From the IMG/VR virus record IMGVR_UViG_3300047554_000338, positions 7,150 through 71,149 of that record: a DNA stretch of 64,000 nt. One strand, 5' to 3'. Numbering within the stretch: the first letter of the stretch is position 1; the number at the start of each line of letters is the position of its first letter. A program made the position numbers and the translations under genes. Below are positions 11,022 through 47,558 of the stretch, in pieces. Origin of the DNA: a virus. The notes beneath the pieces are model-generated. The model ran no database searches, was not told the DNA's origin, and was given only the letters and a program-made list of their open reading frames with translations.

Positions 11022-11984
11022 ATGGCAACGAATCAAAAACCTGTACTGCGCGGCGACACCTACTGGATCAACGTCCAGATCGAGGGCAAGCGCCTGCGCA
11101 AGAGCCTGAACACGCAAGACGCCAAGCTGGCCGCTGAAGCGTTCACGCGTGAGCTGGCCGAGTTCTACCGCACGCGCAAGTTCAAGGAGATGCCCAAGAA
11201 GACCGTCAACGACGCGTTCGACAAGTGGCTGGACGAGCGCAGCGCCAAGCGCTCTATCGAGGACGACGAGCGCAAGGTCAAATTCCTCCGCGCCAAGATC
11301 GGCAGCACCCAGCTGTCGGAGCTCACCGTTTCCATGATCGAGGACGCCATGCCCCAGGGCGTGAGCCCGTCCACGCGTAACCGCTACCGCGCCCTGATCC
11401 GCGCCATCCTGCGCCGGGCCATGCGCAAGTGGCAGTGGCTCAACAGCGTGCCCGCGATCGAGGAAGAGGACGAGCCCGAGGGATACACCGAGCACCTGAC
11501 CAAGGACCAGGCCGAGCGCCTGATCGCGGAGCTGCCTGAGCGCTACCGCAAGCCCGTGCGCTTTGCCCTGCTGACCGGCCTTCGCCGCGCCAACGTGTTT
11601 GGCCTGACCTGGGACAAGGTCAACCTCGAGAGCGGCACGGTGGTGGTCGAGGCCAACACCGCCAAAGGCAAGCGCCGTTTCCTGGTCCCGCTGAACGCGA
11701 GCGCCAAGGCTTTGCTGGAGTCGGTGGAGGGGCGCGAGGGCCGCGTCTGGGGCGACGTGACCCACGTCTGGCAAAACGTCTGGGAGGACGCCTGCAAGCG
11801 GGCCGGCGTGAAGATCAAGTTCCACGGCCTGCGCCACACCTGGGCGACGTGGCATGCGGAAGCAGGCACGCCGCTTGACGTGCTTCAGAAGCTGGGCGCG
11901 TGGGCGACGCACTCGATGGTGCTTCGCTACGCTCACCGGCCGGCCGACTACCTCGCGCAGGCTGCTGAGGCGGTTGCCTTGTGA
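11022..11984 (+). CDS. int: Tyrosine integrase (paired with tRNA-Leu att)
   Basis: TGLRR, FHGLRHTWATW, LGAW and RY catalytic motifs; N-terminal arm-binding-like domain; adjacent tRNA 3' half. Confidence 0.95.
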   Translation: MATNQKPVLRGDTYWINVQIEGKRLRKSLNTQDAKLAAEAFTRELAEFYRTRKFKEMPKKTVNDAFDKWLDERSAKRSIEDDERKVKFLRAKIGSTQLSELTVSMIEDAMPQGVSPSTRNRYRALIRAILRRAMRKWQWLNSVPAIEEEDEPEGYTEHLTKDQAERLIAELPERYRKPVRFALLTGLRRANVFGLTWDKVNLESGTVVVEANTAKGKRRFLVPLNASAKALLESVEGREGRVWGDVTHVWQNVWEDACKRAGVKIKFHGLRHTWATWHAEAGTPLDVLQKLGAWATHSMVLRYAHRPADYLAQAAEAVAL

Positions 11985-12043
11985 CAGTGGCACATTTCTG
12001 TCACACCTGTATTCCGCTGTCATAGGCACTCATCGTAAGTGCC

Positions 12044-12099
12044 TGGTGCGAAAGGGGGGACTCGAACCCCCACGGGGGTAACCCGCCGGAACCTAAATC
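12044..12099 (-). tRNA. tRNA-Leu(TAG) 3' half (att core A; not a complete tRNA)
   Basis: GA-TTTAGGT-TCCGG-CGGGTTACCCCCG-T-GGGGG-TTCGAGT-CCCCC-CTTTCGC-ACCA; no D arm or 5' acceptor strand. Confidence 0.9.
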
Positions 12100-12219
12100 G
12101 AAAAAAGGAGGTAGCGAGTAGTTAAAAATCAATCACTTAAAACCGACGGGGGCCCGGTATTGGCCCCCGAATTGGCACAATTATGTCACAGCAACACAGT
12201 AACAAAGAAGGACAGTTTT

Positions 12220-12801
12220 ATGAGCAACACACAACCCGAAGCCCTCCGGCTGATCCAGCACATGGACGACGAATGGCCCGAGGACTGGGACGGCCTGGCA
12301 ATCCGCGCCGAACTGCGCCGCCTGCATACAGAAAATGAGTTCTTGAGGGGGCAGTCATTGGTCAAAGCCGGGCCGCCATACAAATTCCAGAGATTCGTTG
12401 CAGGGCAAAAGCGTGCCCAAGATGTTGTCATCGAGAAAGAGGAACAACTGCAACGCGCCGTCCTCAAGGCAGCAAGGATTTGTCCTCCTGCGGAATTGAC
12501 AGTGCTTGTCTACACCAGTCAACAGCCAGCCGAGCCTTACGATGAATTGACGCAGGCGCTAATCGAGCGCGATGAATACCACGCCATTGCTGACGAACTT
12601 GCCGAAAAGATTGTGGAAATCACGGGCGCAGACATTGGCGAACACAGCAGCGCAAATAACCCGTGGCTGAAGGCGTTGGAGGTTGCGGACGATTGGCTCA
12701 TGCGCCACAAAACGTTTGAGCCCGACTACTACGTCTACAACATTGACGGCGTGTATCGCTTGGCCGATCCGCAGCCAACCATCCGCTGGGGGAATAAATG
12801 A
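12220..12801 (+). CDS. Hypothetical mosaic phage protein (possible Ead/Ea22-like segment)
   Basis: AAGGA RBS; QPEALRL..AELRRLH..NE module and ERD...IGEHSSANNPW motif. Confidence 0.65.
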   Translation: MSNTQPEALRLIQHMDDEWPEDWDGLAIRAELRRLHTENEFLRGQSLVKAGPPYKFQRFVAGQKRAQDVVIEKEEQLQRAVLKAARICPPAELTVLVYTSQQPAEPYDELTQALIERDEYHAIADELAEKIVEITGADIGEHSSANNPWLKALEVADDWLMRHKTFEPDYYVYNIDGVYRLADPQPTIRWGNK

Positions 12802-13043
12802 AGCTAACCAAAACCCGCATCGGAAATTATCTGCGCCGCCACATGCTAGGCGACCAGCCGACATTTAGGAAAGGGTTCAAAGAAGGCGTTGCGTTTGCAC
12901 AAAACAGCCAGCCCTTAACTGAAGATCAAATATTTGATTTGGAGAACAACTTGCCTGACGACGCAGTATCAGACAGGCGTTGGACAATCGAATTGGCGCG
13001 TGCCGTCGAAAGAGCGCACGGCATCGGCGCCGGATCTTTGTGA
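12798..13043 (+). CDS. Hypothetical phage protein (PLTEDQI...RAVERAHGIG module)
   Basis: Start overlaps upstream stop; stop codon overlaps arm-type repeat TGACACA. Confidence 0.65.
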   Translation: MKLTKTRIGNYLRRHMLGDQPTFRKGFKEGVAFAQNSQPLTEDQIFDLENNLPDDAVSDRRWTIELARAVERAHGIGAGSL

Positions 13044-13097
13044 CACAAAAATGGCACACCCATCGGAGTTTCCGGGTGTGCCACAGTGGCAAGCTAT

Positions 13098-13153
13098 TGG
13101 TGCGAAAGGCGGGAGTCGAACCCGCACGGATTTTGTCCGCCGGAACCTAAATC
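13098..13153 (-). tRNA. tRNA-Leu(TAG) 3' half (att core B; not a complete tRNA)
   Basis: GA-TTTAGGT-TCCGG-CGGACAAAATCCG-T-GCGGG-TTCGACT-CCCGC-CTTTCGC-ACCA. Confidence 0.9.
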
Positions 13154-13172
13154 GCTTCGCGCCAGTTTTCCC

Positions 13173-13200
13173 AAAAAAAGGCCCTGAGCAATCAGGGCCT
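13173..13200 (-). terminator. Intrinsic terminator of the late/lysis operon
   Basis: AGGCCCTGA-TTGC-TCAGGGCC-T7 on minus strand; homolog at 46950..46976. Confidence 0.8.
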
Positions 13201-13256
13201 TAAGTCTCAATGGCATCTACAAACAGCTCTCGCTGTGGCACGATTGTGGCACAAAT

Positions 13257-29109: not shown

Positions 29110-30081
29110 TTAGTTTTGGATACGACCCTGGAACTGAGCACCAGAGGTGGTCAGGTTGCCGGCCCAAGCCAAGATCTGAACTTCAGCGTCCTGGTTGATG
29201 GCATAGCGACGGTTGGGGCTCAAAGGAACCATGTTGCGGTCCTTGTGAGGGCGCCACTTGATGTACTTGCTGTTGAGCATGAAGCCGGTGTTGGCAGGGC
29301 AATAGCCGCCAATACCGCCGTCCAGAACAACGTCAGCATCCATGAACTTCAATGTGGGGAAGCCCAAATTGCCAGTCTCAGGAGATGTGAAACGCTGCTG
29401 GGCTTGCAAGCTGCCCATGTAGTAAGACCAGTAGTTGTTGTCCAACACGACCAAGTCAGGACGGTCAGTGCCGCGGACCAACTGAGCCCAGAGTGCATTC
29501 AACGCAGCCTGCATAGTGGTTGCGCTGGGTGTCACGCTTTGAGCGCTAAAGTCGTACAGCTTGGAACGCCAGAAGGTCCAAGTTGCGCGGTTGATGCCAC
29601 CGTAAGTGCCAGTTGTGGGGTCAGCAGGCACAGCGGCGTTCAAGCCGGTGACTTCTTTACCGCCAGAGCCAGTGCCGTCAGAGTAGATGGACTGGGCCAA
29701 CTGGTTGACCATGGTGGACTCAGCCACGTTCAAGCGAGCTTCGAGCAAGTCGATGAACTGCTCTTTGCCGCTGTTTTGCAACATCTCGAGGCCAGACATC
29801 ACGACGGGCACTGCGTACTGCTTGATTTGGAATTCAGCAGCAGAGATGACGTCTTGAGCAGCCACAGGCAGCAAGTCGTAACCTGAGTAGAAACCGCCGT
29901 TCGCGTTTTCAGCGAATGAGAGTTCTTCAAAGATTGTGTTACCACCAGAGATGGTTTTGACGTTGCCGCGCTGGTTCAAGCGGGACAACAGGGCGTTGTT
30001 TTTAGTAACGTTGTCAGCGATCTGACGTGTGCGTGACTGGATCGTCGTTGCGACGATGTCACTTACATTTGGAAAAGACAT
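29110..30081 (-). CDS. Major capsid protein
   Basis: DIVATTIQSR...IADNV..NNALL family motif; strong AAGGAG RBS; follows scaffold-like gene. Confidence 0.85.
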   Translation of the reverse strand: MSFPNVSDIVATTIQSRTRQIADNVTKNNALLSRLNQRGNVKTISGGNTIFEELSFAENANGGFYSGYDLLPVAAQDVISAAEFQIKQYAVPVVMSGLEMLQNSGKEQFIDLLEARLNVAESTMVNQLAQSIYSDGTGSGGKEVTGLNAAVPADPTTGTYGGINRATWTFWRSKLYDFSAQSVTPSATTMQAALNALWAQLVRGTDRPDLVVLDNNYWSYYMGSLQAQQRFTSPETGNLGFPTLKFMDADVVLDGGIGGYCPANTGFMLNSKYIKWRPHKDRNMVPLSPNRRYAINQDAEVQILAWAGNLTTSGAQFQGRIQN

Positions 30082-30263
30082 GATGACTCCTTCATCTGAG
30101 TTAAAACGAGCTTGCGCTCACCTTTTTCAGATGCGCCTACGCGAACCTTTCACAGTCCGACTTCGTCGTAGGTGGGACGCGAGGCGTCTCCTAGGATCAT
30201 GCGGTGGCTGGGGTGCTTGGGCACACCAGTCGAGATTTCTCTCGACATGGTGTGATTATGGCA

Positions 30264-35927: not shown

Positions 35928-36545
35928 TCAGTCACCTTGCGGCTCTCCTGCGCCCTTGCCTGCCTCCGGCATGCTGCCGGCGACACCTGCCGGCGACTCC
36001 ACCGGATCTTTAATCCGGTACTTGCCTGCCGAATCCCGTTCTAAATCAACGACTTGCGTGACCTGCTCGGCCGGTTGTGCCACAGTTGTGCCAATGTTGC
36101 GCTGGCCAAGCCAGCTGAGCTGCACCTGGATGCCGCCCTCCACGTTGGCGTTGATCTGCGTCGGCAGCACCTTGGCCACCAGGCCGACGAACGCGGCCCG
36201 ATCGCTCGAGGTTCCTTGAGCGAGCCTGGCCAAGTAGGCCGGTCCTCCCACCTCGTCGAACGCCTCGAGCACGGCCTCGCGCAGGTTCGTCAGCCGGTTC
36301 TTGACGCCCGGCGTGCGGCCCGGCCCCGCCGGCACTGGCTGGCCGTTGCGCGGGCTCACCGCGCCCTGCTTCCCCTCTGTTTTTGGCTCTGTTTTGGCTT
36401 TTTGGGCATCCTGAGCCGCCGCTAACTTCTCCAGCCGCACGCGCTCCTCAGCCTCGTCCATGCGCTGCTGCATCTCCGCTGTGGCCATGACCTGGGCGAG
36501 ATCCGGGAACTTGAATTCAGGCATTTGTTGGGTGTTTGTTTCCAT
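35928..36545 (-). CDS. Probable terminase small subunit
   Basis: Core near-identical to 832..1434; N-terminus differs. Confidence 0.6.
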   Translation of the reverse strand: METNTQQMPEFKFPDLAQVMATAEMQQRMDEAEERVRLEKLAAAQDAQKAKTEPKTEGKQGAVSPRNGQPVPAGPGRTPGVKNRLTNLREAVLEAFDEVGGPAYLARLAQGTSSDRAAFVGLVAKVLPTQINANVEGGIQVQLSWLGQRNIGTTVAQPAEQVTQVVDLERDSAGKYRIKDPVESPAGVAGSMPEAGKGAGEPQGD

Positions 36546-45839: not shown

Positions 45840-46877
45840 ATGAGCAAACCTGTACTGCGCGGCAACACCTACTGGATCAACGTCACCATTGATGGCCAGC
45901 GACTTCGCAAGTCGCTTGGCACTCAAGACGAGAAGCTGGCCAAGGAGGCCTACACACGCGAGCTGGCCGACTTCTACCGCACGCGCAAGTTCAAGGAGAA
46001 GCCCAAGAAGACGCTCGACCAGGCGCTCGATCGCTGGGTTGTCGAGAAGGGCAGCAAAAAGTCCTTCCAGGACGACAAGGACAAGATCGCCTTCTTCCGC
46101 AAGGAGCTGGGCAAGAAGGTCAAGTGGCTGCATGAGATCACCGCCGGCATGGTCGAGGAGATCCTGCCCCAGGACGTCAAGCCGGCCACCAGGAACCGCT
46201 ACCGCGCCCTGATCCGCGGCGTGCTCAACCGCGCCAAGAACGTCTGGGAGTGGCTGGACGAGGCGCCCAAGTTCATCGAGGAGAACGAGCCGGCCCGTCG
46301 AGTCGCATTCCTGACACACCAGCAAGCAGCCGATTTGCTGGCGCTGTTACCGGAGAAATACCGGACGCCGGTCCGTTTAGCTTTGCTCACCGGGTTGAGA
46401 AGATCCAATGTCTTCAACTTGACCTGGGAGAACGTCAACCTGGAGCTCAATACCCTGATCATTCACGCGGACGAGCACAAGGGCGACGAGCGCCAGGTCG
46501 TGCCCTTGAACGCCCAAGCCTGGCAGCTGCTGGCCACGATGCCAGGAGAGCGCCTAGGACGCGTTTTCAAGGATGTGGGCGACCGTATATCCCCCAGCGT
46601 CTGGAAACGCGTCACAGCGCAGATTGGAGCGCCCTGGTGCCGTTTCCATGACCTTCGTCACACCTGGGCGACCTGGCATGCGATGGCCGGCACTCCGACC
46701 ACCGTGCTCCAGGAGCTGGGCGGCTGGGCGACCACCGAGATGGTGCGCAAGTACGCGCACATTCCGGGCGATCACCTGGCTGCAGCAGCCGAGCGTGTCG
46801 TGCTCCCTGACACAAATCTGGCACAGCCGGCGAATGACGCCGCTGGGCCAGACTTCAAGGGAGCTGTAAGTGCTTGA
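45840..46877 (+). CDS. int: Tyrosine integrase (paired with tRNA-Ser att)
   Basis: TGLRR, FHDLRHTWATW, LGGW and KY motifs; adjacent tRNA 3' half. Confidence 0.95.
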   Translation: MSKPVLRGNTYWINVTIDGQRLRKSLGTQDEKLAKEAYTRELADFYRTRKFKEKPKKTLDQALDRWVVEKGSKKSFQDDKDKIAFFRKELGKKVKWLHEITAGMVEEILPQDVKPATRNRYRALIRGVLNRAKNVWEWLDEAPKFIEENEPARRVAFLTHQQAADLLALLPEKYRTPVRLALLTGLRRSNVFNLTWENVNLELNTLIIHADEHKGDERQVVPLNAQAWQLLATMPGERLGRVFKDVGDRISPSVWKRVTAQIGAPWCRFHDLRHTWATWHAMAGTPTTVLQELGGWATTEMVRKYAHIPGDHLAAAAERVVLPDTNLAQPANDAAGPDFKGAVSA

Positions 46878-46879
46878 TT

Positions 46880-46940
46880 TGGCGGAAGGGGTGGGATTCG
46901 AACCCACGGTACGGTAGAACCGTACACCGGATTTCGAATC
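46880..46940 (-). tRNA. tRNA-Ser(CGA) 3' half (att core; not a complete tRNA)
   Basis: GA-TTCGAAA-TCCGG-T-GTACGGT-TCT-ACCGTAC-C-GTGGG-TTCGAAT-CCCAC-CCCTTCC-GCCA; long variable arm, G discriminator. Confidence 0.9.
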
Positions 46941-46949
46941 TGATCAGAC

Positions 46950-46976
46950 AAAAAAGAGCCCTGATTTACAGGGCTC
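46950..46976 (-). terminator. Intrinsic terminator of the late/lysis operon
   Basis: GAGCCCTG-TAAAT-CAGGGCTC-T6 on minus strand. Confidence 0.8.
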
Positions 46977-47030
46977 AAGGTCTCAATGGCAATCTGCGTG
47001 GCACATGTCCACGGCACAATTCTGGCACAG

Positions 47031-47558
47031 TCATTCGTCCTCAGTTTCCATCGTGCTGAGGAATAGAGCCTTCTCAGCCTTGCGCCGTTTGACCAGGCCA
47101 GGCAGCTCCTTGCCTCCTCCCCTGGTCCACTGCATGAAGGCCTCCGCGGCCCCCTCCCAGTCCTGGCGCCCGATCTTCATCCGAATAGTGGAACGCTGAA
47201 AGTTTCCCAGCCCGGCATTGAACGCAAAGCTGGTACACGCGTCGAAAGCGCCTTGATTGCCAAGCAGATTGGGAGCAAGTCGTAAAACACCACGCTCAAA
47301 ACTAGCGACGTCACTTGCGAATAGCGCATCGATCTCTTGTTGACTCCAAACACGGCTGTCCTCCGGTCTCAGTGGGTATTCCTTGCGGATCACGGGGCTG
47401 TGGATCTCCTTCACCCGCACCATCGGCAGCCTGATCTGCTCCTGGTAAAGCACATGCCCCCAGCCGATCGTCCAGATGTGCGCGGGGCATAGGTAGGGCC
47501 GGTTTCTGCAGCCCTCGTACTGGTGCATGAGATCTGCACCGGCCTTGCTCAAATTCAC
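47031..47558 (-). CDS. Endolysin (GH24 lysozyme, soluble type, E-C-T triad)
   Basis: YEGC...PYLCPA.IWTIGWGH; FNAG.GNF..ST; GLVKRRKAE. Confidence 0.88.
   Translation of the reverse strand: MNLSKAGADLMHQYEGCRNRPYLCPAHIWTIGWGHVLYQEQIRLPMVRVKEIHSPVIRKEYPLRPEDSRVWSQQEIDALFASDVASFERGVLRLAPNLLGNQGAFDACTSFAFNAGLGNFQRSTIRMKIGRQDWEGAAEAFMQWTRGGGKELPGLVKRRKAEKALFLSTMETEDE

Follow-up and report, generated by a model that had tools for sequence, protein, structure and literature searches.

We analysed a window of 64,000 nucleotides (bases 7150-71149 of the single contig of 71,149 bases that makes up the IMG/VR virus record IMGVR_UViG_3300047554_000338), in which an integrase gene, int, is followed by a phage attachment site (attP) containing the 3' part of a tRNA-Ser gene (positions 45840 to 47029). 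As shown below, the record consists of two related phage genomes, which we call the Ser phage and the Leu phage after the tRNA genes represented in their attachment sites, their integrases being IntSer and IntLeu. The int gene of the Ser phage is an open reading frame (ORF) on the plus strand (45840..46877) encoding 345 amino acids with a match to the Pfam family PF00589 (residues 157-308, E-value 8e-22). We divided the protein into an arm-binding N domain (codons ~1-57, 45840-46010), a core-binding domain (codons ~58-150, 46011-46289), a catalytic domain (codons ~151-322, 46290-46805) and a read-through tail (codons 323-345, 46806-46874), all encoded on the plus strand. The residues R187, K214, H270, R273, W296 and Y305 are invariant across an alignment of 15 sequences, which identifies IntSer as a tyrosine recombinase.

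In the AlphaFold2 model of IntSer (mean predicted local distance difference test score, pLDDT, 78.9), strands at residues 5-7, 10-17 and 20-25 and a helix at 31-48 are predicted for the N domain, followed by two helical and mixed domains, and residues 316-345 of the tail, with pLDDT below 50, are predicted to be disordered. Using Foldseek, we aligned this model to full-length lambda Int (1z1b_A; 355 columns, E-value 4e-9, 16-17% identity), to the Tn1549 integrase, and to the catalytic domains of the HP1 and P2 integrases (26% identity, template modelling score 0.72-0.73 by target). A profile search of the PDB returned seven matches, topped by an archaeal XerC-like protein and including the HP1 (1aih) and P2 (5c6k) integrases; lambda integrase was not among them. 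The best matches in a collection of isolated phages (50,697 records) were those of Aaphi23 and the phiE202/phi52237 group with 34-36% identity, no protein in the collection being more than 36% identical and DNA matches spanning only ~10% of the query. The modelled fold places IntSer among the heterobivalent tyrosine integrases of the lambda/P2/HP1 type.

The Ser attP (46808-47029) begins inside the 3' end of int with a P-arm pair, TGACACA and TGGCACA, 11 bp apart on the plus strand (46808..46825), and ends with a P' arm of three direct arm-type sites on the same strand (46999..47029; TGGCACA at 46999, CGGCACA at 47012 and TGGCACA at 47023). Between the P arm and the tRNA 3' end lies a candidate site for integration host factor (IHF), a consensus match (AATCAAGCACTTA) on the minus strand at 46867..46879 that overlaps the int stop codon. 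Next, again on the minus strand, comes the 3' part of a tRNA-Ser(CGA) gene (46880..46940), which consists of the CCA end (46880-46882), the acceptor, the T arm, a long variable arm, the 3' anticodon stem TCCGG (46927-46931), the anticodon loop TTCGAAA (46932-46938), which is the putative 7-bp overlap, and GA, the last two bases of the 5' anticodon stem (46939-46940). An intrinsic terminator on the minus strand (46946..46976), with an 8-pair stem (hairpin 46976..46956) and then a T run, and a conserved block GTCTCAATGGCA on the plus strand (46980..46991) separate the tRNA part from the P' sites. The P' sites lie +65, +78 and +89 from the loop centre, and the P pair -126 and -115. The arm-pair pattern YGNCACRNNNNYGNCACA has nine matches in the window against 0.37 expected, a number reached in none of 100 shuffles, and the arm sites, of the form G[GT]CAC[AG], occur on both arms and differ from the core, as is typical of a heterobivalent attP. 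The IHF consensus WATCAANNNNTTR has six matches in the window (0.8 expected), including that at 46867-46879 on the minus strand, and visual inspection shows similar motifs at the corresponding position of four relatives (L005, L006, L009 and L013). For the block GTCTCAATGGCA we found two exact copies in the window (13204 and 46980) and one copy with a single mismatch (0.55 expected).

When compared with 401 Burkholderiales genomes, the Ser fragment matched best tRNA-Ser(CGA) genes called by ARAGORN (94-95% identity over 61-62 nt), and in most of the matching host genes the stem is CCGGA/TCCGG and the loop either TTCGAAA or CTCGAAA. The identity between attP and tRNA runs from the GA ahead of the loop (46940) to the CCA end (46880), which places the site in the anticodon-loop class, and the same boundary recurs in the Leu, Cys, Asn and Lys relatives described below. 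A preliminary description of the window, all of whose listed sequence elements are present at or within a base of where it had placed them, needs one correction here, namely, that the tRNA-derived stretch is 46880-46940 and its loop 46932-46938. ARAGORN called no complete tRNA gene in the window, and Rfam gave no match in the window at the gathering threshold and no tRNA match for the tRNA fragments at a loose threshold. The only strong match at that threshold, to the plastid 3' UTR element RF04351, lies on the plus strand at 46883-46935 and is below the family's cut-off (54.4 bits, E-value 1e-11; cut-off 68); this match appears to be an antisense image of the tRNA-Ser 3' half, a possible source of false matches for RF04351. 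The variable arm of the tRNA part (46909-46926) differs from that of a record encoding an identical IntSer (L001, 4070-4090); the changes look compensatory, and the comparison suggests that the tRNA part may have been exchanged with different hosts.

The Leu phage carries a homologous module, whose integrase IntLeu (320 amino acids, PF00589) is encoded by an ORF on the plus strand at 11022..11984 and is 57% identical to IntSer over 320 columns by BLASTP. The N-termini are as similar as had been described (45/57 residues, 79%, for residues 1-57), and the identity then drops to 136/260 (52%) for residues 58-322, although homology is kept throughout instead of being lost; in the family alignment the N domains are 81%, the core-binding domains 46% and the catalytic domains 55% identical. 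The gene is followed by two att sites on the plus strand. Site A (11988..12190) has arm pairs at 11988-12005 and 12173-12190, a tRNA-Leu(TAG) 3' part on the minus strand (12044-12099, loop 12091-12097) and a candidate IHF-consensus site (12127-12139); site B (13041..13253) has arm pairs at 13041-13058 and 13236-13253, a tRNA-Leu(TAG) 3' part on the minus strand (13098-13153, loop 13145-13151) and the terminator with the block (13204-13215). The two tRNA parts, with loop centres at 12094 and 13148 and arm pairs around each, are 84% alike. The best genome matches of these parts, that of core B included, are tRNA-Leu(TAG) genes, and the T arm and acceptor end of site A are those of a host tRNA-Leu(TAG). 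Read in the tRNA sense, the core is GA-TTCGAAA-TCCGG in the Ser site and GA-TTTAGGT-TCCGG in both Leu sites. We can thus confirm several statements of the preliminary description: the cores differ only in the loop, the two integrases have different tRNA targets with the same loop-proximal stem, arm pairs with 11-bp spacing lie at 46808-46825 and 47012-47029 in addition to the single TGGCACA at 46999, and the IHF consensus, the terminator and the block are present, the latter two being common to the Ser att and Leu core B.

To place these two modules in their family, we collected a close clade of 23 integrases, namely, IntSer, IntLeu and 21 others from IMG/VR and metagenome scans, most of them 55-61% identical to IntSer (43% for the basal member L181); two near-identical copies were left outside the trees. 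The attPs of this clade contain, at the same place, parts of six different tRNAs (Ser, Leu, Cys, Asn, Lys and His). Besides the Ser and Leu phages, the targets are Ser(CGA) in L003, L005, L008 and L181, Cys(GCA) in L004, L006, L007, L009-L015 and L174, Asn(GTT) in L173, Lys(CTT) in L176, and His(GTG) in L177, L179 and L178, the last of which is cut at the contig end. The His-targeting attPs hold a complete tRNA-His(GTG) gene instead of only a 3' part (2552-2627 in L177, 2891-2966 in L179), with arm sites at +52/+63, close past its 5' end. L016 and L180 are cut by contig ends, and L175 (2545-2700) has neither a tRNA part nor an arm pair after the int stop, its attP possibly having been deleted.

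Measured from the loop centre, the arm sites keep constant distances in 16 attPs, and also in the Asn- and Lys-targeting ones (L173 and L176). The P-arm pair is found at -105/-94 with short tRNAs and at -126/-115 with tRNA-Ser, and the P' triplet has the same positions in Ser-, Cys-, Asn- and Lys-targeting relatives. The minus-strand hairpin is kept in the Ser and Cys relatives, and variants of the block occur in relatives as well. Since the arm offsets are constant whatever the tRNA, and the terminator and block recur, the arm code common to IntSer and IntLeu, correctly noted before, is a trait of the whole family and not a peculiarity of these two phages. In the relatives of IntSer, a stop codon stands just ahead of the P-arm pair; IntSer has lost this stop, which is why its P-arm pair lies inside the 3' end of int and why it carries a 23-residue tail encoded by the P arm and the IHF site. 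A small ORF between the int stop and the P-arm pair is found in four relatives (L004, 3945-4290; L005, 3939-4190; L015, 3942-4190; L179, 2560-2890), where it could encode a recombination directionality factor, and is missing from both phages of the window.

The 3' anticodon stems of the targets read TCCGG (Ser, Leu), TCCGT or TCCGC (Cys), TCCGT (Asn, Lys) and TCCAG (His), which means that the six share their first three bases, TCC, and five of them also the G that follows. In a quick tree with six distant relatives as the outgroup and with support by the Shimodaira-Hasegawa-like approximate likelihood-ratio test (SH-aLRT) only, the Ser-targeting L181 is basal, three further Ser lineages lie within a basal polytomy, and a clade of seven contains the Asn, Ser, Leu, Lys and His users (SH-aLRT 97), in which IntSer and IntLeu are sisters (96). 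At least five target changes are needed on this tree. Because the basal member and three further lineages use Ser(CGA), this target is likely ancestral and Leu derived, and the Leu phage is probably the one that switched; the direction from tRNA-Leu to tRNA-Ser proposed in the preliminary description would be reversed.

More distant relatives were taken as the 80 best loci from 185,579 species genomes (35-41% identical to IntSer). At 70 of these loci a complete tRNA gene stands on the opposite strand 24-203 bp past int, and at the remaining ten there is none; an integrase gene adjoining a rebuilt, complete tRNA gene was seen in these distant relatives only. The 70 tRNAs belong to 13 isoacceptors and have 27 different 3' stems, and hence the family does not require an identical or even a similar stem. 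The survey of homologs that the preliminary description had called for thus gives a divided answer, with all targets of the close clade sharing TCC and the diversity among distant relatives refuting a strict form of the stem rule.

A statistical preference for similar stems can be recognized in both sets. As a reference we used the 46 distinct tRNAs of one Burkholderiales genome (G335), of which two have TCCGG, eight TCCGN and 13 TCC. All five derived targets of the close clade start with TCC (P = 6.5e-4 against this reference), and four of the five read TCCG (P = 1.1e-3 for four or more). For the wider family, 26 switch pairs, that is, pairs with different targets on non-overlapping paths of a quick tree of 97 sequences, match on average at 3.19 of the five stem positions, compared with 2.61 +/- 0.16 after re-pairing the tips (P = 0.0006), 2.05 for all pairs of G335 tRNAs and 2.49 for the targeted isoacceptors within G335 (P = 0.004). 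Moreover, T is found at position 39 in 12 of the 18 targeted G335 isoacceptors vs four of the 28 non-targeted ones. These results show that target switches in the wider family favour similar anticodon stems. The idea of switching among tRNAs with the same stem thus holds as a preference, but identity is not needed, as TCCGT and TCCAG demonstrate.

Taken together, we consider it likely that the locus is the int and attP module of a temperate phage of ~35 kb, which comes from a clade that switches its targets among tRNAs with like stems. Because the switches of this clade stay within GGA/TCC stems, the sequences suggest that the loop-proximal stem pairs may be part of the conserved recognition of the core site, with the loop being read only through the identity of attP and attB. 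Several observations weigh against this interpretation. In the 185,579 species genomes no relative exceeded 41% identity and no complete relative reached 55%, so that neither a lysogen from the close clade nor an attL or attR came out of the search; as no such junction was found for the Ser phage, the crossover point and the activity of the module are inferred. Some sister integrases use very different stems, L074 and L092 matching at one of five positions and L091 and L097 at none, 13 Arg- and three Pro-targeting relatives have stems such as CCAAG and ACAAG, and the tRNA-Leu(TAG) stem of G335 itself is not TCC. The phage-side core half-site is, by eye, only weakly symmetric with the stem. The stem bias was measured against a single reference tRNA set with the help of quick trees, for a class suggested by the data, and could come in part from which tRNA genes are safe or available, not from recognition by the integrase.

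This last thought can be extended to the possibility that the shared stem is a coincidence or by-product, the phages using free-standing or tolerated tRNA genes whose stem is not read by the integrase. TCC stems are common (13 of the 46 tRNAs of G335), the distant relatives use many different stems, the tested class came from the data, and a preprint on Klebsiella reports a bias of target usage tied to genomic context. However, pure coincidence seems unlikely to us given the five out of five derived targets with TCC, the excess of T at position 39, and the pair analysis, which gave low P values both with the pool of targeted tRNAs kept as the null and with the within-genome null.

With regard to enzyme specificity, 14 alignment columns separate four Ser-type from ten Cys-type integrases, and seven of them fall in residues 245-261, before the H270-x-x-R273 motif. 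The residues that set the core specificity of lambda vs HK022 integrase sit at a similar distance before HxxR. Since the residues that separate Ser- from Cys-type enzymes cluster just ahead of this motif, the alignment suggests that each integrase may be tuned to its own core, which speaks against cross-reaction. The preliminary description had envisaged the opposite, namely, that IntSer and IntLeu, if they read the same CCGGA/TCCGG core, may act on each other's sites and could be programmed through the overlap and the 3' half. The five-base 3' stem, identical in both attPs, the common arm code and attP geometry, and the TCC start of all six clade targets would fit such cross-action, as would publications on HK022 and mv4, according to which a matched 7-bp overlap is free and the core half-sites are short or degenerate. 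Yet the core-binding and catalytic domains of the two enzymes have diverged to 46% and 55% identity, the patch of seven out of 14 columns at 245-261 suggests co-adapted specificity, the tRNA sequences diverge beyond the five stem pairs, and other targets in the clade read TCCGT or TCCAG; we therefore regard cross-action as improbable. Semi-programmability would in any case not be a new principle, since a free overlap with matching attP and attB has already been published for this class of enzymes.

We also examined whether the divergence of the integrases bears a mark of switching. For IntSer and IntLeu, the ratio of nonsynonymous to synonymous substitution rates (dN/dS) in the core-binding domain is 1.24 (bootstrap 0.73-2.12), and dS rises from 0.39 in the 5' part to 1.48 in the catalytic part. 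We rejected an explanation by adaptive change and a recombination break, as dS of the core-binding domain is low (0.3-0.6) in all 11 pairs, and a switch-linked dN/dS, as the ratio is near 1 also between Ser-targeting integrases (0.41/0.40 for IntSer-L003, 0.47/0.46 for IntSer-L008). Because other pairs behave alike, the dN/dS signal is not tied to switching and the contrast in dS is an unsafe basis for recombination; the lack of a switch-specific signal in the 11 pairs is another point against our interpretation. The domain trees differ: the tree of the N and core-binding domains groups IntSer with IntLeu (SH-aLRT 99) and rejects its grouping with L003 (approximately unbiased, AU, test, p = 0.004), while in the catalytic tree IntSer groups with L003 (SH-aLRT 94). 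These trees do not establish a mosaic integrase, because the AU test on the catalytic part retains the pairing of IntSer with IntLeu (p = 0.44).

In the mechanism that we propose for the Ser module, the small N domain of IntSer would bind arm-type sites GGCAC(A/G), two of them next to int and three across the core, with an IHF-like bend site separating the P arm from the core. The anticodon stem-loop of tRNA-Ser(CGA) would be where the core-binding and catalytic domains act, and strand exchange would take place inside the 7-nt anticodon loop, as the homology boundary indicates. Upon insertion, the attP copy from the loop to the CCA would rebuild an intact tRNA-Ser gene beside int. The minus-strand terminator would halt leftward transcription of the lysis/late operon just before the core. 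Over the history of the clade, at least five changes of target would have occurred, always to tRNAs with a GGA/TCC stem next to the loop, the arm sites and geometry being kept. A more radical version, which we mention tentatively and consider rather unlikely, is that the clade reads only the three or four loop-adjacent stem pairs, GGA/TCC(G), accepts the loop solely through the identity of attP and attB, and can reach any tRNA with such a stem by exchanging the tRNA-derived stretch in attP, while the enzyme stays nearly or wholly the same. If so, such retargeting would be recorded in the five natural switches, whose arm geometry is unchanged, and perhaps also in the integrase-less cassettes described below, which could be served in trans by that enzyme; the clade would amount to a naturally occurring platform of heterobivalent integrases that is easy to re-aim, and similarity of anticodon stems would be a general rule for the target changes of tRNA-targeting elements.

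The composition of the record bears on how the two modules are related. Comparison of the contig with itself revealed two collinear units of ~35 kb, 70-98% identical and each with its own structural genes, and 98% identity between contig bases 1-749 and 36486-37234. This 749-bp repeat (contig 1-749 and window 29337-30085) falls in a late gene and forms the head-to-tail joint of the units. A separate virus record of 33,071 bp (CheckV completeness 92%) carries the Ser unit alone and encodes an identical IntSer; in this record, the sequence of the contig end continues through 236 bp into the same repeat as at the contig start. Because of the two collinear units and this separate record, we conclude that the 71-kb record is two related phage genomes of ~35 kb joined, be it in the cell or by the assembler, at the near-identical 749-bp stretch, not one phage genome with two integrases, and that it should be used with the caution due to a record holding two genomes. 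Logan contigs from public runs overlap the joint only in short pieces, none of which spans the 749-bp repeat together with its two flanks. Unitig depths left and right of the repeat differ (71.6 vs 38.9 and 32.3) and one alternative joint was found, a weak hint of two populations. The alternative, a real single molecule of 71 kb carrying both int-att modules, either a phage with two integrases or a stable heterodimer, would account for the single contig, for its end closing on its start via ~236 bp like a circular dimer, and for one unitig that covers the left flank and the repeat in the run holding most of the stretch; with the halves being complete, collinear phage genomes, the 33-kb record linking the contig end to the repeat in the Ser unit alone, and the unequal depths and alternative joint as a weak further hint, we judge it very unlikely. 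Least plausible of all, with next to no chance of being right, is that the tRNA-like stretch is no att site but a decayed phage tRNA gene or a chance likeness: the silence of ARAGORN and of Rfam at the gathering threshold agrees with it, but the end of the stretch coincides with the anticodon loop, its 61-62 nt match host tRNA-Ser with 94-95% identity, the distances to the flanking arm sites are fixed, the same design recurs in relatives with five other tRNAs, and integrated relatives adjoin whole tRNA genes.

As for the surroundings of the module, genes for a Sak4-like annealing protein, SSB, a Cas4-domain exonuclease, an HNH endonuclease and a Holliday-junction resolvase lie 5' of IntSer, and an endolysin gene on the minus strand (47031..47558) stands just beyond the P' arm and directly upstream of the minus-strand terminator. 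The host of the Ser phage is probably a freshwater member of the Burkholderiales. Two of the nine arm-pair matches (TGGCACAACNGTGGCACA) are on the minus strand at 983-1000 and 36076-36093, inside homologous ORFs of the two units, and in the Ser unit an IHF-consensus match lies 20 bp from the pair (region 36044-36093); these ORF-internal pairs could be due to chance or to a coding repeat, or could form an additional site for the integrase.

The two Leu cores, which are in direct order, enclose a cassette of ~1 kb (12100-13097) without an integrase gene, whose own P'-like and P-like arm pairs face the cores, and which contains two ORFs of no recognised family (12220-12801 and 12798-13043). The relative L008 (4088-5360) is built alike, its two tRNA-Ser cores enclosing a segment with three ORFs, and the last ORFs of the two cassettes have a common C-terminal motif (37% identity over 43 residues, E-value 7e-6). 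Integrase-less segments flanked by att sites have been conceived as cis-mobilizable elements (CIMEs), a concept that goes with tandem accretion at tRNA genes. With its att cores in direct order, its arm sites and its lack of an integrase gene, the Leu double core has the features of a CIME-like cassette, and the Leu and L008 cassettes resemble CIMEs in being integrase-less segments between direct-order att sites; however, CIMEs sit in chromosomes, whereas these cassettes sit inside a phage attP region. The double-core cassette looks like a CIME-like element or a captured prophage remnant, and by its arrangement could use the phage integrase in trans.

Among known systems, lambda and HK022 provide, like IntSer and IntLeu, a pair of related integrases with different targets; they share arm sites and differ in core specificity. 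Like IntSer, the lambda and HK022 integrases have arm-binding, core-binding and catalytic domains, and as in the Ser attP, their attachment sites consist of a core, with an overlap of 7 bp, that is flanked on either side by arm sites; they are also IHF-aided, a role that the candidate site would play here. The relationship of lambda Int to IntSer is remote, however, given the low Foldseek identity and the missing PDB profile match, and neither lambda nor HK022 targets tRNA genes, whereas the Ser core is a tRNA anticodon stem-loop and its attP holds the tRNA 3' part. The HP1 and P2 enzymes have the closest solved catalytic domains, and HP1 inserts in a tRNA-Leu gene at the anticodon stem-loop; compared with these and with P2-like Burkholderia phages, the host group and phage backbone differ, and IntSer is at most 36% identical to any of the isolated-phage records. 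The HK022 work puts the identity between HK022 Int and lambda Int at 70% and describes the HK022 overlap as free in sequence when it is matched, and a preprint on mv4 Int gives the attB of HP1 as 18 bp and describes a specificity that follows the identity of the 7-bp overlap, with core half-sites tolerating variation. As described for Ms6, an altered attP core redirects vectors to other tRNA-Ala genes. The mv4 and Ms6 cases are laboratory changes at T-loop or 3'-end sites of Gram-positive and mycobacterial systems, while the switches reported here are natural and lie in the anticodon loop. The Ser attP belongs to the anticodon-centred class of sites ('A' sublocation; Williams 2002; Islander), which is the commonest class in Islander, with 2083 islands, and the Klebsiella preprint and Islander describe integrase subfamilies as keeping their sublocation (anticodon loop, T loop or 3' end) across different tRNAs. 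Our literature search found no statement that switches within a subfamily favour similar anticodon stems, which is weak evidence of absence.

The Ser module is thus an ordinary tyrosine integrase with an anticodon-centred tRNA attP of a known class, and its interest lies in the series to which it belongs. With 23 integrases, one arm code and geometry, and six targets, the close clade is a compact natural series on the change of target by heterobivalent integrases, and bears on whether the anticodon stem is what stays fixed in the core site. Should larger data confirm it, the bias towards similar stems would refine the rule of sublocation preference and could help to predict secondary integration sites.

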